This document shows positions 17,735 through 64,000 of a stretch of 64,000 nucleotides of DNA, one piece after another. Below the pieces are notes generated by a model. That model had not been told where the DNA came from. It worked only from the letters and a program-made list of their open reading frames with translations, and made no database searches. Every line of letters starts with the position of its first letter. The stretch's first letter is position 1. The translations under genes and the position numbers were made by a program. The DNA lies in contig PCWN01000007.1 in the NCBI GenBank assembly GCA_002787355.1, positions 315,552 through 379,551 on the forward strand. Direction: 5' to 3'. The stretch comes from Candidatus Magasanikbacteria bacterium CG11_big_fil_rev_8_21_14_0_20_39_34. GTDB taxonomy: Bacteria > Patescibacteriota > Patescibacteriia > Magasanikbacterales > UBA922.

Positions 17735-17805
17735 TCGGGGATCGTCTAATGGTAGGACTCCAGGTTCTGGTCCTGGCTATCGGGGTTCGAGTCCCTGTCC
17801 CCGAG
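17735..17805 (+). tRNA. tRNA-Gln (anticodon CTG)
   Basis: Hand-folded cloverleaf. Acceptor stem TCGGGGA/TCCCCGA with U1:A72 and G73. 4-bp D-stem with a GG loop. Anticodon stem CCAGG/CCTGG with loop TTCTGGT. T-arm CGGGG-TTCGAGT-CCCTG. Confidence 0.85.
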
Positions 17806-17820
17806 CAAGCAAGGGTGAGC

Positions 17821-17845
17821 AGGCACGAGAGTGCCTGTTTTCTTG
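17821..17845 (+). terminator. Hairpin + T-run after the tRNA
   Basis: aggcac-gaga-gtgcct followed by gttttcttg. Confidence 0.5.
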
Positions 17846-17863
17846 TATTCTGAGCCATTTTTT

Positions 17864-17879
17864 AGAAGTTCGGAAGTTG
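17864..17879. repeat. Direct repeat copy 1 (AGAAGTTCGGAAGTTG), candidate att-like island boundary
   Basis: It matches 24918-24933 at 15 of 16 positions, with 13 of 13 in the core. It sits about 60 nt past the tRNA-Gln 3' end. Confidence 0.4.
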
Positions 17880-17930
17880 CGTTTAGCTTGGGCATCCATT
17901 CAGCCAAAAACTGATATGCTGGTGTCGCTG

Positions 17931-18254
17931 TTACGTGTACTTCGCGTTCAAGCGTGAGTTCCATATGAGAGAAAAAACGGGACAATAAGAGACGTTTTTC
18001 TTCGGGTGAGGTTTGTCTTCTCGTGCGTTAAATGCGAGCCTGTGAATCTCTAGCCCTACTTCGTAGTAGTTATCGACCCGATCTTCGAGATTTTCAAGCT
18101 GTTTCAAAATAGAGCGTTTCTCACGTTTGTAATCATCCGCTTTTCTCTTGTAATACTCGTCGGTTATCACGCCGTCCAGCCTGTCCTCGTACATTTTGTC
18201 GAGACGACCCTCGAGCCTCTCTATAGCCTCGTTGAGCTGTTTGCGTGATGTCAT
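17931..18254 (-). pseudogene. Recombinase-like remnant (coiled-coil segment resembling the C-terminal region of large serine recombinases); likely a decayed integrase
   Basis: 107 aa with LEGRLDKMYEDRLDGVITDEYYKRKADDYKREKRSILKQLENLE. It has no catalytic domain. The surrounding roughly 900 bp has about 50% GC and only fragmentary ORFs. Confidence 0.3.
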
Positions 18255-18343
18255 GGAATAATCCGTCTTGTCTTGGTTCTTTTCCTTGAGAGCCTCGTTA
18301 TGTGATTGTTTATACAGACACCAGCGAGAAGAGAGGTCAAGCG

Positions 18344-18517
18344 TTATCGTTTATGCTTGGTCTTGTCGACCAATGTAAACTTCTTCGCTTCACCTGCATA
18401 CGGCGGAGCTGTTTCACCTTTGGTCAACGTGATTTCACGTCTAGTTCCTGACGGTCGATATTGACCCGAAACAGGTGCTTTGTGCCCCGTCGATGTTGTT
18501 ACCTTTTTGTTAGGCAT
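18344..18517 (-). CDS. Small basic hypothetical ORF (57 aa) in the island's decayed region
   Basis: Hand-translated MPNKKVTTSTGHKAPVSGQYRPSGTRREITLTKGETAPPYAGEAKKFTLVDKTKHKR. It falls below the ORF-track length cutoff. Confidence 0.2.
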   Translation of the reverse strand: MPNKKVTTSTGHKAPVSGQYRPSGTRREITLTKGETAPPYAGEAKKFTLVDKTKHKR

Positions 18518-18697
18518 ACATTTTCGGTTAGCCGATGAATAAAACGGGTAGCGTCCGACTTTTACTCCGCCCCGCGGAGTAAAAACCTCAATAGATTTGC
18601 ACTCCGGAGGGGGTAAAGTGAGCTGATCCGAGAGTATTCAAAGGGGGCTGAAATTATCTCGCTGGCATCTATATAAACAACTGATTGGAATGAACGC

Positions 18698-19297
18698 TTA
18701 CAAATTTCTGATGACCTTTACGACCACACCCTGCACGTCTACCTGTCTATGATACGTTGGCTCGTATTTCCCATTGGCCGGCTGTAGCCGTATCCTGTTC
18801 TGCTCTTGGTATATCCGCTTTAATGTCGCCTCGCTGTCTTCGAGAAGTGCAACGACCGTATCGCCATTGTCCGCACTCTTTTGCTGTTTTGCGATGATAA
18901 TATCTCCGTCGAGGATACCGTCTTCAATCATGGAATCGCCTTTGGCTCTTAGAGCGAATAGCCTACCTCGCAGAGCGTACTCCCTGGCGACTTTGACTGT
19001 TGTATCGTCGTATTCCTCAAGAGCTTCAATGGGTGAACCGCATGAAATAGTCCCTTTTATGGGAACCTCGATATAATCCGTGCGTTTTTTGGGCAGTGAG
19101 AGGCCTCTTTCTCGACGGTCGTACCGTTTGAGGAAGCCTTTATCCACCAAAGCCGAAACACGGTCGTGTACGGTTGATATGGCGGATAATTCAAAATGAT
19201 CTCGGATGTCATCGAAAGAGGGGGCGTACCCGTTCTGGTCGATGTACGAGGTGATGTAGTCGAGCGTTTCTCGTTGTCTTTTCGTCAGCGTGTTCAT
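18698..19297 (-). CDS. lexA: LexA-family transcriptional repressor (wHTH + S24 autopeptidase)
   Basis: N-terminal LexA DNA-binding domain (LTKRQRETLDYITSYIDQNGYAPSFDDI). Catalytic Ser in AKGDSMIEDGI and Lys in ATLKRIY. An Ala-Gly cleavage-site-like RAKG is present. The start is taken at MNTL. Confidence 0.8.
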   Translation of the reverse strand: MNTLTKRQRETLDYITSYIDQNGYAPSFDDIRDHFELSAISTVHDRVSALVDKGFLKRYDRRERGLSLPKKRTDYIEVPIKGTISCGSPIEALEEYDDTTVKVAREYALRGRLFALRAKGDSMIEDGILDGDIIIAKQQKSADNGDTVVALLEDSEATLKRIYQEQNRIRLQPANGKYEPTYHRQVDVQGVVVKVIRNL

Positions 19298-19346
19298 GTG
19301 GTATATTATAACCGAAGAAAATCCGAATAGCAAATCCGAAAAAGTG

Positions 19347-19375
19347 TGGACAAGTGCTCAAAAAAGGAGTATCAT
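19347..19375 (+). promoter_or_regulatory. Putative sigma70-type promoter for the mod operon (TGGACA-N17-TATCAT), inside the divergent lexA-mod intergenic region
   Basis: Hexamers read directly from the sequence. The adjacent direct repeat AAATCCGAA x2 at about 19321-19346 is a possible operator. Confidence 0.3.
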
Positions 19376-19405
19376 ATAAATCGTTAGACAAAACCCGTAC
19401 TAATT

Positions 19406-20953
19406 ATGCCTACACTCAACTGGATCGGTAAAGAGGCAGTAGTCAATCATGACAAAGAAGTCCCTTTCAAGCTCCTCAAAAAAGTAAAATCTCAATCAGT
19501 AGGTGAAAATTCACACAATCTGATTATCCATGGCGATAACCTAGAGGCATTAAAAGCATTAATGCCTTATTATGTTGGAAAAATAAAATGTATCTACATT
19601 GATCCCCCTTACAACACTGGAAACGAGGGGTGGGTTTATAACGATAAGGTTAATTCGCCAAAAATAAAAAAGTGGCTTGGAAAGGTTGTAGGTAATGAAC
19701 CTACAGACCTCTGTAGACATGATAAGTGGTTGTGCATGATGTATCCACGCTTAAAACTTTTGCGTGATCTTTTGCGTGATGATGGTGCTATTTTTATATC
19801 TATTGATGACAACGAACATTGTCATTTGAAAATGATTTTAGATGAAATGTTTGGCATTGAAAATTTTGTTACAAACATCATTTGGCAAAAAAAATATACA
19901 CAAAGTAATGATGCAAAATATTTTTCATCTACGCATGATTTTATAGTGTGCTATGCAAAAAATATTAAGAATGCGGATTTCAAAATAAATCTTTTAGAAA
20001 GAACGGAGAAACAGAACGCACGTTACAAAAATTTGGATAATGACCCACGGGGGCCATGGATGACACAGCCCCTACATGCAAAAAGTGGAAATGACAAAAC
20101 CTATACGTTTACATTTCAAAATGGTGTTAAATGGAAGCCCCCAGCAGGTACTTTTCCGAGATATAGTTTAGACACTTTGCGGAAGGCTGAGATGAACGGT
20201 GAAATATGGTTTGGAGCAAAAGGGACTGCCGTGCCACGTCTTAAAAAATACTTGAATGAAATGAAAGACGGCGTTATACCTAAAACAATTTGGCTTTATG
20301 ATGAGGTTGGTAGTAATGACGATGCAAAAAAAGAATTAAAGAATGTTTTTGACGACAATCCCTTTGCGACACCAAAGCCAACAAAACTATTGAAAACAAT
20401 TTTTAAAATTTCATCAGGGAAAGACGATATTGTATTAGATTCATTTGCTGGATCAGGCACTGCTGGACATTCAATTTTGGATCTCAATAAAGAAGACGGC
20501 GGAAAAAGAAAATTTATTCTTGTAGAAATGGAAGATGATATTGCTAAAAATATCACCGCCGAAAGAATAAGACGAGTGTGCAAAACAAATGAATATTCAG
20601 ATGGTTTTGAATATTGTGAGCTTACAAAACCACTTTTTGATGAAAATGGTCAAATAGAGAAAGAGTGTGACTTCAATCAGTTTGCCACATATATCTATTT
20701 TACCGAAACGCAGACAAACATCGACAAGGCAAAAATCAATAAGAATTTTATCGGTGAATACAGCGACACACATTTTTATCTTATCTACAAAGAGAAAGGC
20801 AAAAATGTTCTTACCAAAACTTTTTTACGACAGCTCAAAAAAGACGGTGCGAGAAAAATCGTTTATGCTGATCGCTGTATGGTTGACGATGATATTCTTG
20901 AAGAATACAACATTGTATTTAAGCAAATCCCTTACGAGGTAAAAGTTTACTAA
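19406..20953 (+). CDS. mod: Type III restriction-modification system methyltransferase (Mod), N6-adenine beta-class
   Basis: Motif IV DPPY (CIYIDPPYNTG) precedes motif I FAGSGTAGHS. The N-terminus is Mod-like (IIHGDNLEALKAL). Confidence 0.8.
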   Translation: MPTLNWIGKEAVVNHDKEVPFKLLKKVKSQSVGENSHNLIIHGDNLEALKALMPYYVGKIKCIYIDPPYNTGNEGWVYNDKVNSPKIKKWLGKVVGNEPTDLCRHDKWLCMMYPRLKLLRDLLRDDGAIFISIDDNEHCHLKMILDEMFGIENFVTNIIWQKKYTQSNDAKYFSSTHDFIVCYAKNIKNADFKINLLERTEKQNARYKNLDNDPRGPWMTQPLHAKSGNDKTYTFTFQNGVKWKPPAGTFPRYSLDTLRKAEMNGEIWFGAKGTAVPRLKKYLNEMKDGVIPKTIWLYDEVGSNDDAKKELKNVFDDNPFATPKPTKLLKTIFKISSGKDDIVLDSFAGSGTAGHSILDLNKEDGGKRKFILVEMEDDIAKNITAERIRRVCKTNEYSDGFEYCELTKPLFDENGQIEKECDFNQFATYIYFTETQTNIDKAKINKNFIGEYSDTHFYLIYKEKGKNVLTKTFLRQLKKDGARKIVYADRCMVDDDILEEYNIVFKQIPYEVKVY

Positions 20954-20957
20954 TCCT

Positions 20958-23222
20958 ATGCAACTAAAAACCTATCAGCAACAAGCCCTTGAGACGTTGC
21001 AAAACTACCTCGAGGAAATGAAGAAAGTCGGCTCAAAATATGCGTTCATGGGCACGACTGATACGCCGTACAATAGTGAGTATTTTGGTGAAACACCTTT
21101 TGTCTGTATCAAGATTCCGACCGGTGGTGGAAAGACAATGGTCGGTTGTCATGCAACGGTTGAAATCATGCGTAAAGCCCTTGCTTATAAAATGGAGCGC
21201 GGTATTGTAATGTGGTTTGTACCGTCAGAAGCAATCAAGACACAGACATTGCGTAAATTCAAAGACCGAAATGACTGGCACAGACGTATCCTTGATGAGA
21301 GTTTTGAAAATGGCGTGCGTATTTTTTCAAATGAAGAAGCACTCCGTATTCGCAAAGAAGATGTTGACGACAACCTCTGTATTATCATTTCAAGCCTTGA
21401 GGCGTTCCGAAAAGAAAAGAAGCTCCAAAACAAATACAAGGTTTATCAGGAGAACGGTGCACTTCTTAGCTTTTTTGAACATATCAAGAGTGAAGACGGG
21501 TTAGAAAAAGATGAAGAAGGAACGGTTATCAATTCACTTGCAAACGTCATCCGCATGGATAATCCACTTATCGTTATTGATGAGGGGCATAAAACACAAA
21601 CAAAACTCTCTATCGACTTTTTGAGCGACCTCAATCCGTCCTTTATTGTGGAATATACCGCTACTCCTCGCAAGGGTAGTAATATACTCGTGGATATTTC
21701 TGCGTCTGCTCTCAAGGAAGAAAACATGGTGAAAATCCCTATTGTCCTTGAAAGTAGTAACCAATGGGGCAATGCCATTGTACGAGGTATGGAGCAGCGG
21801 GATGAGCTGGAAAAAGAGGCAAAGAAATTAAAATCCGAGTATATTCGACCGATTGCTCTTATTCAAGCACAGCCACATAGCAAGACACAAAAGAACGTTA
21901 CGGTAGAAGAAGTCAAAGACTTTCTTCTCAGGGCGAAAATCCCCGAGGATCAAATCGCAACTAAAACATCCAATACAAATGAACTCGAGGGCGTAGACTT
22001 GTTTAGTAAAAAGTGTAAAATTCGTTATATCATCACCGTAAGCGCGCTTGCTGAGGGTTGGGATTGTTCCTTTGCGTATGCGCTTATCTCTGTTGCGAAC
22101 GTGGGATCAAAAATTGCTGTTGAGCAGATTATCGGACGTATCTTACGTATGCCATACGCCGAGAAAAAAACTATCGAAAGCCTCAATCGTTCATATATTT
22201 TTGCGTCGGCAAAAAACTTTAACGAGGCGGCAACTCAGATTATCTCCGGCTTAGAAGCTAACGGATACAGTAAACACGACTTGGTAAGTAGATCAAATAA
22301 AGACGAGAAATACGAACTTGAAGTAGAGCGAACAGTAGACGAAGACTTTGCTATACCAATGATGAGCCTAGACGGTGACAAACTCTCGTTTGAAGATCTT
22401 GTAGGAGAAAAATTTGAACTTGCAAAACAAAACCCTGACTTTGACTTTGATATTCACTGGGATAGCGACGGTCGCGCGATTATTGATATTGAAGGTGACA
22501 AATGGACGAAAGGACGACAACTAATGCTACACCTCACATACAGGGATAAAAACTTCTCTCGAGAAGAATTGACCCAATGGCTCGACAAAAAGCTCCGTTT
22601 TACACTCCTTGATAAGCAGGACAAAGTGGCATTTATTAAAAAAGTTATTGACGGACAGCTCAAGCAGAAATCTCTTGCCGACTTATCAGTCAATCGTTAT
22701 CTATTCCGTGATCGTCTTGATAAAGCAATCAACGATATTTTAGAGGAATACGCAAAGAAACAATTTGACGCACAAATGAAAAAAGGAGAGGTGAAACTTA
22801 AGAAGTTTGAAGCGTTCCCTGCCTCTATCATACTCGGGCAAGAAATACCGCAGTCGTTCAACAAAAGCTACTACGAAAAAGTAGACAAACTCAATAAAGA
22901 AGAATTGAACTTTATCGAACGCCTTGACCTAGATACGTTGCCAAACATAGAATTTTGGATTAGAAACCGAGAAAAAAGAGATCCATTCTATATTCAAGGC
23001 TGGCGTAAAGGAAAATTCTATCCCGACTTTATCGTAAAAACAAAAAAAGGAAATATTGTTGCGCTTGAATGGAAAGGTGAAGACCGTATATCAAATGACG
23101 ATACAGAATACAAAGTTGCTATTGGTGAAACGTGGCAGGATTTGAGCAAGGGTAAATTACACTTCTTTCTTGTTCATAATGGGAATGTGGAGGAGGTTTT
23201 GAATGAACTAAAACAAAAATAA
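20958..23222 (+). CDS. res: Type III restriction enzyme Res subunit (SF2 helicase + PD-(D/E)xK nuclease)
   Basis: Walker A PTGGGKT, DEAH-like VIDEGHK, and a C-terminal PDF...EWKGE nuclease-like motif. It starts 4 nt after mod. Confidence 0.8.
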   Translation: MQLKTYQQQALETLQNYLEEMKKVGSKYAFMGTTDTPYNSEYFGETPFVCIKIPTGGGKTMVGCHATVEIMRKALAYKMERGIVMWFVPSEAIKTQTLRKFKDRNDWHRRILDESFENGVRIFSNEEALRIRKEDVDDNLCIIISSLEAFRKEKKLQNKYKVYQENGALLSFFEHIKSEDGLEKDEEGTVINSLANVIRMDNPLIVIDEGHKTQTKLSIDFLSDLNPSFIVEYTATPRKGSNILVDISASALKEENMVKIPIVLESSNQWGNAIVRGMEQRDELEKEAKKLKSEYIRPIALIQAQPHSKTQKNVTVEEVKDFLLRAKIPEDQIATKTSNTNELEGVDLFSKKCKIRYIITVSALAEGWDCSFAYALISVANVGSKIAVEQIIGRILRMPYAEKKTIESLNRSYIFASAKNFNEAATQIISGLEANGYSKHDLVSRSNKDEKYELEVERTVDEDFAIPMMSLDGDKLSFEDLVGEKFELAKQNPDFDFDIHWDSDGRAIIDIEGDKWTKGRQLMLHLTYRDKNFSREELTQWLDKKLRFTLLDKQDKVAFIKKVIDGQLKQKSLADLSVNRYLFRDRLDKAINDILEEYAKKQFDAQMKKGEVKLKKFEAFPASIILGQEIPQSFNKSYYEKVDKLNKEELNFIERLDLDTLPNIEFWIRNREKRDPFYIQGWRKGKFYPDFIVKTKKGNIVALEWKGEDRISNDDTEYKVAIGETWQDLSKGKLHFFLVHNGNVEEVLNELKQK

Positions 23223-23235
23223 CAGACAAAATTGT

Positions 23236-24132
23236 ATGTCATGGGAAGATACATTTAAATCGTGGGGGGCTGCCCCAGGTACAACAGAACAGCAAAAAAT
23301 GGAAAATGCTGAGAATGCTGTTCGTAAGGCAATTAACGCTGAAACTGTGCTTAAAAACATGGATATTTCGATTATCCCGCAGGGCTCATACAAGTCTCGA
23401 ACGAATGTAAGGCAAGATAGTGATGTGGATATTTGTATTTGTCTGAACTCTACTTTTTTTCCAAGATATCCGATTGGTAAGACAAAAGAAGATTATGGCA
23501 ATATCGATGGCAGTATAAACTTTGATGAGTATAGAAATCTGGTGCAAAGAGCCTTGCAGAATTATTTTGGAACAGAATATGTTACACCTGGCAATAAAGC
23601 ATTTGATATACACTCAAATACATCTAGAGTTGATGCTGATGTTGTACCTGCATTTGCCTACCGGTATTATCATGGAGAGGGTGAAAACGATTATCAACAA
23701 CCACTCGGCATCGCTTTTCTGACAAATAACGAGAAAAAAAAGATAATAAATTGGCCTCATCATACTTATGATAACGGCAAAGAAAAACAGCAACGTACAG
23801 GACAACGCTATAAAAAAGTGGTTAGAATCATCAAAAAATTGAGAAATAAAATGCAAGAAGAAAGTATTTCAGAATCACAGGATATAGCATCTTTTTTGAT
23901 AGAAAGTATGGTTTGGAATGCACCAGATAGTCATTTCAATCGTGATACTTATACTGCAGACGTGCGTGCTGTTCTGGCATATTGTTTTAATGAAACTTTA
24001 CCCAATGGGAGTCATGGAAAGCTTGGGGAGGTAAATGATTTTAAGTATTTATTTGGGGATCACCAGCCATGGTCAAGAGAACGAGCTCATAAATTTTTTT
24101 CTTCAGCCTGGGATTATTTAGGATTTGAATAA
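23236..24132 (+). CDS. cGAS/DncV-like nucleotidyltransferase (CD-NTase / SMODS-type)
   Basis: GS-x11-DVD motif (QGSYKSRTNVRQDSDVDICI) plus a third acidic residue in DADVVPAF. Its size is about 300 aa. It starts 13 nt after res. Confidence 0.65.
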   Translation: MSWEDTFKSWGAAPGTTEQQKMENAENAVRKAINAETVLKNMDISIIPQGSYKSRTNVRQDSDVDICICLNSTFFPRYPIGKTKEDYGNIDGSINFDEYRNLVQRALQNYFGTEYVTPGNKAFDIHSNTSRVDADVVPAFAYRYYHGEGENDYQQPLGIAFLTNNEKKKIINWPHHTYDNGKEKQQRTGQRYKKVVRIIKKLRNKMQEESISESQDIASFLIESMVWNAPDSHFNRDTYTADVRAVLAYCFNETLPNGSHGKLGEVNDFKYLFGDHQPWSRERAHKFFSSAWDYLGFE

Positions 24133-24134
24133 AT

Positions 24135-24752
24135 ATGGAAAAAGTTGATAGGAAAATAAGAGCATATTCTCAGGTGATTACTTTTTTAGTAGTATGGTTT
24201 GTTGTTGTTATTCTGACTAACTCATACTCTACGACTGACTTGCTCCCCGCCATTAAAAGAATCCCTTTAGCTATATCAATTTATGTAATTCTTGCAAGTA
24301 TTTTTGTAAAGTGGATATGGCGTTGGAAAATTTTTCAAGGTTGGTTAATAAAAGTGCCTGATCTACAAGGCACATGGGAAGGTGAATTAAAAAGTGATTG
24401 GATAAATCCCGAAACAGGAAAAGGTATTGATCCAATTCCTATGCTATTAGTGATAAAACAAACCTTTACTTCCATAAATTGTACATTGATGACAAAAGAA
24501 TCTACCAGCTATAGTACGACTGCGGACTTTGAATATGTTCATGGAGGTGACGCTGTTTATCTAACATATAATTATACAAACCGGCCTAAAGCAACTATAA
24601 GAGATAGAAGTGCTATACACGACGGTGCTGCAATTTTGAAAGTAATTAAGGATCCTGAACGCAGACTTGAGGGTGAATATTGGACAAGTAGAAAAACACG
24701 GGGCGATATTAGTATACATTTTGGTTCAAAGGATTTGGCTGAAAGATTTTAA
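24135..24752 (+). CDS. 2TM membrane effector (Cap15-like / SLATT-like) partnered with the CD-NTase
   Basis: Two N-terminal TM helices and an approximately 130-aa soluble beta-rich C-terminal domain. It starts 2 nt after the NTase stop. Confidence 0.55.
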   Translation: MEKVDRKIRAYSQVITFLVVWFVVVILTNSYSTTDLLPAIKRIPLAISIYVILASIFVKWIWRWKIFQGWLIKVPDLQGTWEGELKSDWINPETGKGIDPIPMLLVIKQTFTSINCTLMTKESTSYSTTADFEYVHGGDAVYLTYNYTNRPKATIRDRSAIHDGAAILKVIKDPERRLEGEYWTSRKTRGDISIHFGSKDLAERF

Positions 24753-24917
24753 GAGTTATGTACGATAAAATTTGGTATTTTTACCCCCTCAAATTCTCAA
24801 AAAAAATATATAGTAGCGAGAGTAAAATTCTTTGCTAATACGCAAACACCTGAATATGCCGTTGTGCTCGGCTCTTTAGATGAAAGACTCACCCCATTTC
24901 AATCGACTCTCTAAAAG

Positions 24918-24933
24918 AAAAGTTCGGAAGTTG
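24918..24933. repeat. Direct repeat copy 2 (AAAAGTTCGGAAGTTG)
   Basis: Partner of 17864-17879. It lies just before a bidirectional terminator. Confidence 0.4.
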
Positions 24934-24952
24934 TCCAAGTAGCAGAGCAAAA

Positions 24953-24984
24953 AAACTCAAACTCGTAATGGTTTGAGTTTTTTG
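24953..24984. terminator. Bidirectional terminator hairpin (aaactcaaac-N8-gtttgagttt + T-run)
   Basis: Read directly from the sequence. It closes the island on the right. Confidence 0.55.
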
Positions 24985-25022
24985 ATATAATAAATGCATT
25001 ATTATTATTCTAAATAGAATAT

Positions 25023-25640
25023 ATGAAAAAGTATTTCTTTATTATGGCATTTGCACTTATTGGATTTGCCTATGCAGGAACTGCTTCTGCACAAATGGGT
25101 ATGATGAATACCAATGGCTCTGTGCATAATGAAGCCATAGACGCAATGATTTTACAAATAACAGAAAGCCAAAATATTACTGATCCAACACAGATAGACT
25201 GTAGTAAAGTTTCCAATGAACAATTTGAAAGTCTGGGAGATGCGTTCATGCAAACCATGGCAAGCAATGACAAGCAACATGAAGCAATGGACTCAATGAT
25301 GGGTGGGGAAGGTTCTGAAAGCCTCACACAAGCACACAGAAATATGGGGCAATCCTACCTTGGCTGTAGCACAGGACGAACTGCAGTAGCCATGCCTATG
25401 ATGGCAAATAATGGAATGATGCAAGGTATGCAATTCCAAGGAATTGAACAACGATTCCCACATCAAAATACAAATATGAACTGGGACAATATGAACCGGG
25501 GAAATATGAAATGGCATGGACAGGGAACATACGCTTTTTCAGCCTTACATATTATTTGTGCAGTGATTACCACGCTTCTTGTCTGGACACTCCTTGTAGT
25601 ATGGATTCTTACTCTTCTTAAGGGACTCAGGAAAAAATAG
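25023..25640 (+). CDS. Secreted, C-terminally membrane-anchored Met-rich protein (possible Cu/metal-binding)
   Basis: Signal peptide. Many Met clusters (MGMMNTNG, MDSMMGG, MPMMANNGMMQGMQFQG). A C-terminal TM helix. Confidence 0.5.
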   Translation: MKKYFFIMAFALIGFAYAGTASAQMGMMNTNGSVHNEAIDAMILQITESQNITDPTQIDCSKVSNEQFESLGDAFMQTMASNDKQHEAMDSMMGGEGSESLTQAHRNMGQSYLGCSTGRTAVAMPMMANNGMMQGMQFQGIEQRFPHQNTNMNWDNMNRGNMKWHGQGTYAFSALHIICAVITTLLVWTLLVVWILTLLKGLRKK

Positions 25641-25744
25641 GGAAATATATTCTACAAAAAAATAGCGCCTTTGTGGCGCTATTTTAGCTTTACATGTACC
25701 GTTTGAAAATGATAAAATATTTGCGTTATTCATCATATTTTTTT

Positions 25745-26116
25745 ATGAAAAAAACAAAAATTCTTTTTTGGGTCACTACCACCATTATCTTTCTTTTTGA
25801 AGGAGTACTTACCGCATTTACCTCTCAAAGTGATATGGCAAGAGAAAGCATACAACACCTTGGATACCCGATCTACTTTGGTACCATGCTTGCCGTGTTT
25901 AAAGTTTTGGGTGCATTGGTTCTTATCATTCCAGCCATTCCAAAACGTTTCAAAGAGTGGGCCTATGTAGGTTTTGGAATTGATTTTATTGCTGCACTCG
26001 TTAGTCTTTGGGCGGTAGATGGTTTCAACGCATCCCTTGTACTCCCCGTAGTCTTCATGGCACTCCTTGCCATTTCCTACACCTCTTATCATAAGATGAT
26101 GCCAGAAAAAGCATAA
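25745..26116 (+). CDS. DoxX-family membrane protein
   Basis: About 125 aa with 4 TM. The start could instead be 25694. A terminator follows. Confidence 0.5.
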   Translation: MKKTKILFWVTTTIIFLFEGVLTAFTSQSDMARESIQHLGYPIYFGTMLAVFKVLGALVLIIPAIPKRFKEWAYVGFGIDFIAALVSLWAVDGFNASLVLPVVFMALLAISYTSYHKMMPEKA

Positions 26117-26132
26117 AATCTTTTTCCCAAAA

Positions 26133-26165
26133 ACCATCCGCTCAGAAACGGGTGGTTTTTTATTT
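26133..26165 (+). terminator. Rho-independent terminator
   Basis: ccatccgc-tcagaaa-cgggtgg followed by tttttt. Confidence 0.65.
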
Positions 26166-26216
26166 CTTTCAAAGTTGGAAAAAAATTGTTATACTATATC
26201 CATTCACATAAAAAAT

Positions 26217-26702
26217 ATGAAAAGATTAAAACACCCACTCAAACTTATCCTTTTTATTATCCTTTGTCACCTTGCAGGAATTTTTGGATCTATCTTTACC
26301 GCCATGAATGTTCAGACCTGGTATACAGAGTTGTATAAACCATGGTTTACACCTCCTGCGTGGGTTTTTGCACCCGTTTGGTTTATTCTCTATACCCTCA
26401 TGGGAATAGCTATTTTCCTCATTTATGAAAAGCGCGTTCTTCTCAAAAGAAAATATAAACACCTTGCTATAGCTTTTTTTTGGGCACAGCTTTTACTCAA
26501 TACTATTTGGTCCCCTATTTTCTTTGGTCTTCAGGACCCAATGCTTGCTTTTTTTGAAATTATACTCCTCCTCATTGTGCTTATAATTACCATCTTCTTC
26601 TTTACCAAAGTAGAGAGAAAAGCTGCATTTTTGCTCTTCCCCTACCTTATCTGGGCATGTTTTGCTGCCGCACTCAATGCAGGAATTTGGCTTCTCAACT
26701 AA
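26217..26702 (+). CDS. tspO: TspO/MBR tryptophan-rich sensory protein
   Basis: WYTELYKPWFTPPAWVFAPVWFILYTLMGIA matches the TspO N-terminal consensus. It has 5 TM. Confidence 0.8.
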   Translation: MKRLKHPLKLILFIILCHLAGIFGSIFTAMNVQTWYTELYKPWFTPPAWVFAPVWFILYTLMGIAIFLIYEKRVLLKRKYKHLAIAFFWAQLLLNTIWSPIFFGLQDPMLAFFEIILLLIVLIITIFFFTKVERKAAFLLFPYLIWACFAAALNAGIWLLN

Positions 26703-26759
26703 AAGGATTGATTTTTTTCCTTTTTTGCTCTATACTAAGGGTGTTTTTAAGTTTTTTCC

Positions 26760-27620
26760 ATGGCAAAAATAATAGATGGGAAGGCAATTGCAGCGCAAAT
26801 ACACTCCCAATCTCAAAAACGTATTGCAAAAATGAAAAGCAGCCCCAAACTTGCGGTTGTTTTGGTAGGCAACAATAAAGCATCAGAGCGGTATGTAAAA
26901 CATAAGGAAATTGCAGCAAAAGAAATTGGAATGGAATCTACTGTTTTTCCCTTTAAAAGCACTATTACCGCAAAAGAACTTCGAGTTGAAATAGAAAAAA
27001 TTCAAAAAAAATATAAACCCAGTGGAATTATTGTACAGCTCCCTCTTCCACAGAAACTCCGTTCAAAAACTCAAGAAATACTCAATGCCGTGAATCCTGT
27101 TTCAGATGTGGACTGTTTGACGCAAAACAATATTGGAAGACTTGTTACCAATGACTCCCCTTTTGTTCCACCAACTGTTGCAGCTATCATGCATATTTTG
27201 GAAAAAGAGGAAAAGGTTGATCTTAAAGAAAAATATGTAGTCATTGTAGGAGCTGGGATATTGGTAGGAAAACCACTTACTATGCTCATGCTTCACCATG
27301 AAGCAACCGTAACCGTTTGCAATAAATATACAAAAAATCTCAAAAAATTAACGAAGCATGCAGATATTTTAATTACCGCTGTTGGACAAAAACATATTAT
27401 CCGTGCAAACATGATAAAAAAAGGTGCTATTGTTATTGATGTTGGAGTCAGCATAGAAGGGACAAAAATTTATGGGGATGCAAAGTTTGAAGATGTCAAA
27501 AAAAGAGCAAAATCCATTACACCTACTCCTGGAGGTATTGGACCTATCACGGTTGCATACCTTCTCTCCAATACCATAGATGCACAAGAAAATAGGCTCT
27601 CTCAAAAGAGGAAAAAATAA
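26760..27620 (+). CDS. folD: Bifunctional methylenetetrahydrofolate dehydrogenase/cyclohydrolase
   Basis: MAKIIDGKAIAAQI, PKLAVVLVGNN, IVQLPLP, VIVGAGILVGKPL and TPTPGGIGPITVA. Confidence 0.9.
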   Translation: MAKIIDGKAIAAQIHSQSQKRIAKMKSSPKLAVVLVGNNKASERYVKHKEIAAKEIGMESTVFPFKSTITAKELRVEIEKIQKKYKPSGIIVQLPLPQKLRSKTQEILNAVNPVSDVDCLTQNNIGRLVTNDSPFVPPTVAAIMHILEKEEKVDLKEKYVVIVGAGILVGKPLTMLMLHHEATVTVCNKYTKNLKKLTKHADILITAVGQKHIIRANMIKKGAIVIDVGVSIEGTKIYGDAKFEDVKKRAKSITPTPGGIGPITVAYLLSNTIDAQENRLSQKRKK

Positions 27621-62726: not shown

Positions 62727-62913
62727 AGCTCTCTCCGCTGTTGCGCGAAGGGCGGAAGTAGGGCTTGGGTCCCACAGCATGGGTCCTTCTCCGGTAATTT
62801 CTCCGGAGTGACGTTACCTTCCATGCACGGTAGTAATACTGGTGGGAAAAAGATGCAATGTGCGCTCTATCGGGAAAGGTGCCCGAGAAAGCGTAGGATA
62901 CAGGAGTCTTGTC

Positions 62914-64000
62914 ATGAACCGGTTTTTCACCCTGGTGGCGGCCTGCCTTTTTTCGTTCCTCCTGGGCGGCTGCTTGCCGTCCTTGGAGGACGAGTGCAAC
63001 TCGGACCGGGACTGCCCCCGGTTCGCCGAGGGGGCGACCTGCCGAGTGGGCATCTGCCTGCTCGGCACGGACGCCGCCCCGACCGACGCGGCGATGAATG
63101 ATGATGGTGCGGACGGGACGAACGTCCCGACCGACGCCGCCACCGACGCCGCCACCGACGCCACCCCCGACGCGGCGATGCCCGATGCCGAGGTGCCCGA
63201 TGCCGAGGTGCCCGATGCCGAGGTGCCCGATGCCGAGGTGCCCGACGCCACCCCCGACGCGGCGATGCCCGACGCCGCACTGACCGATGCCGACATTCCC
63301 GATTCCTCGCCACCGTGCGAGGACAGTCCGTCCTTCGGGGCGGACTGTGAGACGGGGATGCCCGGCGCCTGCGCCATCGGCACCATGGAGTGTGAGCTCG
63401 GTGAGCTGGCCTGCGTGCCCGCCACCGAGCCCACCGACGAGGTGTGCGACGGCCTGGACAACGACTGCGACGAGCAGATCGACGAGGGCTTCGACCTGCA
63501 GGCCGACCCCAGCCACTGCGGCGCCTGTGGCCGCACCTGCTCCTTCGAGCACGCCACCCCGGCCTGCGTGGCCGGGGTGTGTCAGATCGAGCAGTGTGAC
63601 CAGGGGCAAGTCGATCTCGACGAGCGGCCCGACAACGGCTGCGAGTACCACTGCACGCCCACCCAGGAGGGTGAGGCGTGCGGCGATGAGATCGACAACG
63701 ACTGCGATGGCTCGGTCGACGAGGAGTGCGCCTGCGATCCTCACACCTTCCAGCCGGCCCCCTGCAACGCGCAGGGTGAGGTCGGCGCCTGCCGCAACGG
63801 CACCTCACGGTGCCAGAACGGCAACGGCTCGCGTGTCGTCTGCGAGCCGTCGCAGCCCCAAGACGAGGCCTGCGACGGTATCGACAACGACTGCGATGGA
63901 AGCATCGACGAGGGCCTGCGCAACGCCTGCGGTGAGTGTGGCGAGGTGCCCGCGGAGACCTGCAACGGTCGCGATGACAACTGCGACGGGCAGATCGACG
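62914..64000 (+). CDS. Lipoprotein (partial, runs off the window) with tandem PDAEV repeats and MopE/myxobacterial-type Cys-rich CxxGxDNDCDGxxDE repeats
   Basis: Hand-translated. It has a signal peptide with a lipobox LLGGC, four exact PDAEV repeats, and at least four C-x2-G-x-DNDCD-x3-DE modules. GC content is about 68% with extreme GC3. The ORF track missed it because it has no stop inside the window. Confidence 0.7.
   Translation, partial: MNRFFTLVAACLFSFLLGGCLPSLEDECNSDRDCPRFAEGATCRVGICLLGTDAAPTDAAMNDDGADGTNVPTDAATDAATDATPDAAMPDAEVPDAEVPDAEVPDAEVPDATPDAAMPDAALTDADIPDSSPPCEDSPSFGADCETGMPGACAIGTMECELGELACVPATEPTDEVCDGLDNDCDEQIDEGFDLQADPSHCGACGRTCSFEHATPACVAGVCQIEQCDQGQVDLDERPDNGCEYHCTPTQEGEACGDEIDNDCDGSVDEECACDPHTFQPAPCNAQGEVGACRNGTSRCQNGNGSRVVCEPSQPQDEACDGIDNDCDGSIDEGLRNACGECGEVPAETCNGRDDNCDGQID
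63181..63240 (+). repeat. 4 x 15-bp perfect tandem repeat (cccgatgccgaggtg), coding for PDAEV
   Basis: Read directly from the sequence. It lies inside the lipoprotein ORF. Confidence 0.9.

Follow-up and report, generated by a model that had tools for sequence, protein, structure and literature searches.

A Type III restriction-modification system and a CdnE-Cap15 pair side by side in a Candidatus Magasanikbacteria genome: probable neighbours in a defence hotspot

Whether the genes of two antiviral systems that follow each other on one strand, only a few nucleotides apart, form a functional unit or are simply neighbours is the question raised by a locus of Candidatus Magasanikbacteria, which belong to the candidate phyla radiation (CPR). 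The locus lies in a genome stretch of 64 kb (the window in the following), which has been compared with loci from relatives (designated by L and a number), and it comprises the mod and res genes of a Type III restriction-modification (R-M) system and the cyclase and effector genes of a cyclic oligonucleotide-based antiphage signalling system (CBASS). A preliminary description of the window proposed that a restriction arm and an abortive-infection arm have been joined here in one operon as an unusual two-layer immune module. The comparison leads to a different reading, namely that two known, self-sufficient antiviral systems are likely to stand side by side in a defence hotspot, their junction being recent, lineage-specific and produced by recombination at the 3′ end of res. 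The locus contains these genes:

19406-20953, + strand: mod, open reading frame (ORF) of 515 amino acids (aa)
20958-23222, + strand: res, ORF of 754 aa
23236-24132, + strand: nucleotidyltransferase (NTase) gene, cdnE, ORF of 298 aa
24135-24752, + strand: gene of a protein with two transmembrane helices (2TM), cap15, ORF of 205 aa

The assignment of the first two genes to Type III R-M holds. Mod matches the PADLOC MTase_III profile (4.4e-187) over positions 1-541 of 542, as well as Pfam N6_N4_Mtase (4.3e-38), and carries the sequence IDPPYNTG (motif IV, DPPY) upstream of DSFAGSGT (motif I, FxGxG). Res is recognized by the PADLOC REase_III profiles (8e-89 and 5.7e-79) and by Pfam ResIII (7.6e-14); it contains the superfamily 2 (SF2) helicase motifs PTGGGKT, VIDEGH and QIIGRILR (QxxGRxxR) and, at approximately residues 695-720 of its C-terminus, the elements YPDFIV...ALEWKG, which fit a PD...ExK-like pattern, while profile support for the nuclease region consists of one weak TnsA-like nuclease match (residues 683-723, E=0.0078) below the cutoff. 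With mod directly 5′ of res on the same strand after a gap of 4 nt (an order common to the Res-relative loci wherever a Mod relative is detectable), an N6/N4 Mod with DPPY and FxGxG motifs, and a Res in which SF2 helicase motifs are accompanied by a putative PD-ExK-like motif at the C-terminus, the pair resembles the R-M systems of the EcoP15I/EcoP1I type. It departs from the reference Type III profiles in that Res (754 aa) is shorter and matches them over the N-terminal approximately 435 residues only, its nuclease region being divergent. By analogy with the family, Mod would methylate the host sites and a Mod-Res complex would cut unmodified incoming DNA.

Two further observations concern these genes. 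Within mod, 12 nt are duplicated exactly, in tandem and in frame (CTTTTGCGTGAT twice, 19757-19780); the duplication encodes LLRDLLRD and is no frameshifting phase-variation tract. The spacing between mod and res is 400-1,200 nt in many loci of this R-M family (L033, L036-L038, L045, L048, L050-L052, L054, L055, L060-L064, L067-L069, L072, L083, L085, L086 and L099) and 2-12 nt in the remaining ones, the wide spacing suggesting that an additional gene is embedded between the two subunits.

That the third and fourth genes make up a minimal CBASS is likewise well founded, as they match the PADLOC profiles of a CBASS cyclase (6.3e-119) and of a 2TM effector (4.9e-78), besides CdnE and Cap15 structures in the PDB. 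The GS-x11-DVD motif noticed earlier corresponds to G50, S51 and D63, V64, D65 of the NTase, and the third acidic residue is D133, which is aligned with the catalytic Asp of LpCdnE. All five PDB sequence matches of the NTase are CdnE enzymes (7x4f, which is LpCdnE, 1.5e-69; 7x4c, 9.5e-62; 6e0m, 1.4e-40; also 7x4a and 6e0k), the best being the cyclic-dipyrimidine synthases LpCdnE, EfCdnE and ClCdnE. On sequence grounds, the protein is thus a clade-E cGAS/DncV-like NTase (CD-NTase), i.e. a CdnE, and a CBASS cyclase. The preliminary description had considered the alternative of an antibiotic or other small-molecule NTase (ANT/KNTase type). In that case the fourth gene would encode an unrelated membrane protein. 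A Pfam NTP_transf_2 match, weak (E=0.0087) and below the curated cutoff, would fit such an enzyme. However, the strong matches are all to CD-NTases, those to the solved CdnE enzymes and to the CBASS cyclase profiles extend over the full length, the partner exceeds the Pfam threshold for the Cap15 receptor domain, and cyclase and 2TM gene are kept as a unit in all relatives, so that the alternative is effectively refuted already and can hardly be entertained for this gene pair.

The cyclase carries an acceptor-lid Asn (Asn172) and the motif Q277-P-W279. Since an (R/Q)xW motif restricts the donor pocket of CdnE to pyrimidines (PMC10442399), a cyclic dipyrimidine such as cUU is the best predicted product. 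LpCdnE, EfCdnE and ClCdnE share with the window enzyme the GS/DxD/D residues, the lid Asn and the (R/Q)xW motif (QPW in the window) in a full-length match, but differ at lid-2, which is Asn in LpCdnE, His in EfCdnE and ClCdnE, and Thr177 in the window cyclase.

The product of the fourth gene has, as anticipated, two hydrophobic segments (approximately residues 10-32 and 40-62) followed by a soluble domain of about 130 aa. The protein matches Pfam Cap15_CD_rec (2e-21, scoring 77 bits where the cutoff is 31.2) and the PDB entry of Cap15 7n34 (1.2e-5), and the Pfam Cap15_TM match (1.1e-4) falls below its cutoff. It can therefore be classified from its sequence, as the earlier reading had it, as a Cap15-type effector; it combines two N-terminal transmembrane helices with a β-barrel cyclic-dinucleotide receptor domain. 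No Cap2/Cap3, HORMA/TRIP13 or other signature accessory gene lies beside the pair, which is flanked by res on the 5′ side and, 3′ of the terminator discussed below, by the gene of an unrelated 205-aa protein that has no Pfam or PADLOC match. The absence of CBASS accessory genes assigns the system to Type I CBASS, in keeping with the known clade-E CdnE-Cap15 systems of that type, which also do without Cap2/Cap3, HORMA and TRIP13. The same order of cyclase and 2TM/β-barrel effector is found in the operons of LpCdnE, EfCdnE and ClCdnE (PMC10442399) and of Ssc-CdnE03-Cap15 from Staphylococcus schleiferi (PMC10686824). In comparison with these, the window pair belongs to an uncultivated CPR bacterium, has a product, a trigger and a defence phenotype that are predictions, and is preceded by only 13 nt of upstream DNA with no evident promoter of its own.

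The one characterized CdnE-Cap15 system is triggered by structured phage RNA (PMC10686824), and Cap15 is described as disrupting the membrane after binding the cyclic dinucleotide (PMC10442399). If the window pair behaves as its family does, a phage that escapes restriction would be sensed by CdnE, which would become active during infection and make a cyclic dinucleotide; binding of the latter to the Cap15 β-barrel would lead to oligomerization and disruption of the inner membrane, and the infection would be aborted.

The physical arrangement that prompted the idea of a fusion is real. The four ORFs are all on the + strand, and their coordinates, with the junctions read directly, give the gaps reported earlier (4 nt between mod and res, 13 nt between res and the NTase gene, 2 nt between the NTase and 2TM genes). 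The statement that a terminator occurs only after the effector gene stands as well: a scan for the consensus within 19406-24752 yielded a single + strand match, which is weak, lies in the 5′ part of mod (19544-19568) and has no proper T-run, so that there is no convincing + strand terminator within the block, and a hairpin is present 3′ of the last gene. The two signals that would delimit a transcript are:

19347-19375, + strand: promoter-like site TGGACA-17-TATCAT, 31 nt 5′ of mod, with 10/12 consensus matches
24950-24983, + strand: AT-rich hairpin with T-run (inverted repeat I16), with a perfect stem of 13-14 bp

The hairpin, missed by the G+C-based terminator scan and picked up as an inverted repeat and through its fold energy (-14.6 kcal/mol, z-score -4.5, none of 200 shuffled sequences being equally stable), is likely to be the intrinsic terminator that closes the unit. 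The site 5′ of mod, a consensus match only, ranks first among the candidate promoters of the block. As only 13 nt of non-coding DNA precede the CBASS pair and no terminator follows res, read-through from the mod promoter is most likely, as for most genes of this compact genome; co-transcription of the four genes is plausible, and a single transcript would probably start from the promoter at approximately 19347-19375.

Tight packing is, nevertheless, a poor guide to function here. CPR genomes are small and compact. When the same ORF-calling rules are applied over the rest of the window, the 49 co-directional neighbour pairs are separated by a median of 23 nt and 20 of them (41%) by 15 nt or less; dnaX, for instance, is followed after only 8 nt by an unrelated C39 peptidase gene. 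The idea that close spacing betrays an unusual fusion is therefore not borne out: short gaps make read-through transcription likely, yet they are no mark of a purpose-built four-gene unit.

The relatives of the locus can be viewed from either side of the junction. None of 80 metagenome loci encoding a Res relative (57-93% identity) contains a relative of the window cyclase or of the 2TM gene. In the 55 dereplicated arrangements for which the gene after res was evaluated, this gene is co-directional and within 30 nt in 18 (33%), co-directional at 31-150 nt in 15 and at more than 150 nt in 6, and convergent to res in 15, no ORF being called in the remaining one. The share of tight gaps is not above the background of the window (41%); it is the content of the position after res, and not the spacing, that stands out. 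The genes found there are almost all mutually unrelated, and wherever a name can be assigned, it is that of a defence gene: a SAVED-HNH effector followed by an AGS-C CD-NTase, i.e. a different CBASS type, in L021; a KAP NTPase in L022; a RelA/SpoT-like protein (PDC-S33) in L023; Avs4 in L045; and a HerA-like ATPase in L050. The first of these loci (L021, 552-5288) comes from the same metagenome as one contig of the window organism and encodes a Res 93% identical to that of the window; its CBASS starts 1 nt after res, and the ORF 5′ of res is not recognizably a Mod.

Pairs of closely related loci show where the exchange takes place. The window and L021 share 86% DNA identity in res only (20951-23212 of the window), and homology stops approximately 30 nt before the res stop codon between L023 and L025 (90% DNA identity), L044 and L045 (89-90%) and L044 and L049 (87%). 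The same break, approximately 10-30 nt before the stop codon, is seen in an alignment of 13 res 3′ ends. From near-identical backbones that differ only in their cargo, the 3′ end of res emerges as a boundary of recombination within a defence hotspot, the CBASS of the window being one occupant among many. Other occupants include recurrent proteins of 300-1,066 aa without Pfam or PADLOC match, which by their position are candidate new defence genes: a protein of 1,066 aa in L025 (7313-10513; also in L026-L029 and L040), proteins of approximately 800 aa in L035 (6124-8619) and L041 (4260-6608), a pair of 319 and 746 aa in L049 (8272-11458), and a further one in L044 (5992-6942).

Relatives of the cyclase were found in 12 genome loci and one IMG/VR contig (L101), i.e. 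13 loci, almost all from CPR metagenome-assembled genomes. In 12 of the loci the match extends over the whole cyclase at 43-71% identity, and L020 contains an N-terminal cyclase fragment only. The 2TM gene is adjacent to the cyclase gene in all 13 where downstream sequence is present. By contrast with this stable pairing, res is directly 5′ of the cyclase in none of the 13, and an adjacent R-M system is missing beside this CBASS clade in 12; in L014 a related mod-res pair lies approximately 7 kb away. Directly 5′ of the cyclase there is instead, in most relatives, an S24 LexA-like repressor gene and/or a small DUF2188 gene; in at least 8 of the 13, the immediate neighbour of CdnE-Cap15 on the 5′ side is the repressor. 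The operon order is S24 repressor, DUF2188, CdnE and Cap15. The CBASS pair forms the tail and starts 3 nt past DUF2188, and thus acts like a passenger without promoter inside the repressor operon.

This operon belongs to a small element that also encodes a large serine integrase, a TerS-like protein, a ParB-methyltransferase and, in some cases, TerL (L009, 3042-11514; also L010, L011, L013, L014, L015, L018 and the IMG/VR contig). Its gene content suggests a vehicle for CBASS akin to a prophage or satellite among candidate-phylum bacteria. An origin of the cyclase in known phage genomes was considered and dropped, as a tblastn search of 50,697 phage records gave no match; one IMG/VR contig does contain a relative. 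In L014 (6-4190) the serine integrase of the element is convergent to a Type III res, 60% identical to that of the window, and directly adjoins its 3′ end; in L009 (27-4454) it stands in the same way against the 3′ end of a Type I hsdR. To judge from this arrangement, L014 could be an intermediate towards the res-CBASS junction of the window. As a separate observation, a plasmid of Vibrio nigripulchritudo (NZ_AP027051.1; L120, 6989-8520) carries a 43%-identical cyclase with a 2TM partner, co-directional with its neighbours, between a DEAD/DEAH helicase and a pair formed by SLATT and a reverse transcriptase, so that co-oriented defence clustering of the same kind also exists in a cultivated bacterium.

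The genomic setting of the block is that of a variable interval. The order SWIB, dnaX, C39 peptidase, tRNA-Gln(CTG) and then folD is kept in related Magasanikbacteria, the tRNA following the C39 peptidase gene in L117, L118 and L119 too. Between tRNA-Gln and folD there are 120 empty nt in L117, one EamA gene in L118 and L119, approximately 6.7 kb of different cargo in the P0002 contig of a relative, and 8.95 kb in the window (17806-26760), where the interval contains a 107-aa ORF, a 57-aa ORF, a LexA-type repressor, the four defence genes and three small membrane-protein genes, in this order. Its left part comprises:

17735-17806, + strand: tRNA-Gln (CTG), found by ARAGORN and Rfam, the left edge of the variable interval
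17931-18254, - strand: 107-aa ORF, G+C content at third codon positions (GC3) of 0.565, foreign composition
18344-18517, - strand: 57-aa ORF, foreign composition
18698-19297, - strand: LexA-type repressor (winged-helix and S24 autopeptidase) of 199 aa, divergent from mod, the gene call being taken from L109

The block formed by the three minus-strand genes (17931-19297) has a GC of 0.46-0.49 and a GC3 of 0.41-0.57, as compared to approximately 0.3 in core genes. Neither Pfam and PHROGs nor the records of phages and plasmids contain a match to the 107-aa ORF; the notion that it might be a decayed serine recombinase was abandoned, since Pfam, PHROGs, tblastn against phages and plasmids, and the serine integrases of the element all failed to match it. 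The GC3 values of the defence genes, 0.31 (mod), 0.40 (res), 0.27 (cyclase) and 0.24 (2TM), differ in a way that fits a mosaic origin. An exact direct repeat, present only twice in the 64 kb (0.05 expected), brackets the block:

17866-17879: first copy of the 14-nt repeat, AAGTTCGGAAGTTG
24920-24933: second copy, same 14 nt

The repeat may mark the island boundary; that it is a pair of att sites is no more than a possibility, as it was found post hoc and is absent from the empty sites of relatives, and as chance alone makes further exact 14-mers occur more than once within these 8.6 kb. Exact look-ups of both flanking proteins, aimed at an empty site at strain level, returned only contigs with the identical arrangement. 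Elsewhere, the end of the window (62900-64000) has a GC of 0.71 against 0.38 in the rest, codes for a protein that has a signal peptide, PDA/PDAE repeats and Cys-rich ‘DNDCDG’ repeats, and looks like a foreign or chimeric join.

Restriction and abortive infection behind one promoter, regarded in the preliminary description as out of the ordinary, have precedents. PrrC in EcoprrI is such a case (cited in doi 10.1101/2024.01.29.577857), and DarTG2 is found inside a Type I R-M system under an RptR-controlled promoter (PMC12255303). In the ‘guilt-by-embedding’ survey of Payne et al. (2024), 96.7% of the defence genes nested in Hma, BREX, DISARM and Type I R-M systems have the same orientation, and their co-regulation was proposed (doi 10.1101/2024.01.29.577857). 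PrrC-EcoprrI and DarTG2/Type I R-M resemble the window in that an abortive-infection system directly adjoins an R-M system in the same orientation, apparently on one promoter, as the guest CBASS adjoins its R-M genes, and the guests of embedded-defence systems are, like those of the R-M family of the window, hypervariable among related hosts (doi 10.1101/2024.01.29.577857). The precedents differ in that their guest is nested between the R-M genes, whereas that of the window is appended after the last one; in that the hosts surveyed by Payne et al. exclude Type III, to which the host system of the window belongs; and in that, in comparison with PrrC-EcoprrI and DarTG2/RptR, a functional coupling or a regulator is at most putative in the window.

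Several observations speak for a closer bond between the two systems than the preferred reading of chance neighbours admits. Four genes selected as an integrated two-layer operon, in which CBASS backs up restriction and is possibly triggered when restriction fails (as PrrC is when EcoprrI is inhibited), would be expected to show the tight co-directional packing and the single terminator that are found, and 18 of the 55 arrangements of the relatives have a co-directional gene within 30 nt of the res stop codon, several of these genes being of abortive-infection type. L021, where the closest Res is followed by an unrelated CBASS, could hint at selection for the pairing of R-M with CBASS rather than chance; the start codon of the cargo overlaps the res stop codon in L045 (gap of -1) and L052 (gap of -4), which indicates real translational or transcriptional coupling at those loci; and all same-species contigs share the arrangement, no recent gain or loss being seen within the species. 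On the other hand, the tight gaps after res are no more frequent than between neighbours at large in the window (33% against 41%, the latter counted at 15 nt or less), the cargo is hypervariable and not conserved, this CBASS clade and this R-M family live apart in nearly all the loci known for either (12 of the 13 and all 80, respectively), so that a conserved partnership was not encountered, and both systems hold every component known to be needed for autonomy. An integrated operon is, accordingly, quite improbable.

The opposite possibility, that the four genes are mere neighbours because the CBASS pair is transcribed from its own promoter in the 3′ end of res, arises as read-through from the mod promoter is what we infer from the layout, and as a promoter-like site (TTGACC-18-TAGAAT, 22924-22953, 10/12 consensus matches) lies within res, 283 nt 5′ of the cyclase gene, a further one being present at 23719-23747. 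However, promoter-like matches in the region barely exceed the shuffled expectation (33 against 23.8 +/- 5.4), the hexamers of the site in res survive solely in the window and the relative nearest to it and are eroded by synonymous changes in other Res genes with tight downstream cargo, and the same CBASS pair follows DUF2188 in the relatives in the manner of a promoter-less cassette. A conserved internal promoter was also sought in the 13 aligned res ends, which display no conservation beyond coding need, and was discarded. Such a promoter is unlikely, if less so than the integrated operon. Taken together, the comparison of loci favours the view that a defence-gene hotspot produced this pairing as a one-off and that it is not purpose-built: with the combination absent from the relatives on both sides, its presentation as an unusual two-layer operon is not upheld, nothing indicates that either system needs the other, and each is a standard member of its family, the two together being an ordinary defence island.

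The divergent LexA-type gene 5′ of mod raises the question of control. The protein matches NCBIfam TIGR00498 above the curated cutoff (4.1e-51), Pfam Peptidase_S24 (2.8e-27) and LexA_DNA_bind (3.2e-16), and its gene shares with mod a promoter region of approximately 108 nt. If the repressor acted on this region, the R-M and CBASS genes would be inducible by DNA damage, in a manner reminiscent of CapH/CapP, CapW and CapK/CapS, with which the window shares a damage-responsive type of repressor placed divergently, directly upstream and on a shared promoter region. Back-to-back promoter-like sites (19333-19305 on the - strand, 19347-19375 on the + strand) reproduce the geometry of capH/capP, which Lau et al. 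found divergently 5′ of CBASS operons (doi 10.1101/2022.04.27.489752); the S24 repressors beside the CdnE-Cap15 pair of the relatives point the same way; and the foreign composition of the window gene (GC3 of 0.545) makes it probable that it is not an ancestral chromosomal lexA at its site. Unlike those regulators, however, the window repressor comes from a different protein family (LexA/S24), is separated from the CBASS genes by an R-M system, and has no recognizable operator. A search of 19270-19420 for an inverted repeat that could serve as a LexA operator gave none; the intergenic region contains, at 19316-19340, a 12-nt direct repeat (AGAAAATCCGAA / AGCAAATCCGAA, 13-nt spacing), which overlaps the -35 element of lexA and whose paired motif occurs nowhere else in the window. 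Moreover, the S24 gene of the relatives occupies the repressor position of an integrase element, by terminase-like and ParB-methyltransferase genes, and looks most simply like the element's own repressor; the GC3 of lexA (0.55) and mod (0.31) argues against a long shared history; and repression of Mod while Res bursts would risk self-restriction. Control of the whole block by this repressor thus appears very unlikely. Several metagenome contigs of the window organism break at or near the lexA/mod boundary.

The preferred reading of two neighbouring systems can be extended, although only tentatively and with rather low expectations, to the proposal that the 3′ end of res in CPR Type III R-M systems is a dedicated slot for promoter-less, swappable abortive-infection cargo expressed by read-through, to which, in the window, the divergent LexA-type repressor might add a response to DNA damage. 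This proposal is backed in part by the comparisons of the loci. For genome scans, the locus is a reminder that unrelated genes of compact genomes are, as a rule, only a few nucleotides apart, and that such gaps do not, by themselves, make a functional fusion. At the same time, it documents a CdnE-Cap15 CBASS, probably with a cyclic-dipyrimidine signal, in an ultra-small CPR genome. New defence genes can be sought at little cost right after the res stop codon, and the cargo slot, if it exists, would carry ‘guilt-by-embedding’ over to Type III R-M and point to candidates for such genes.

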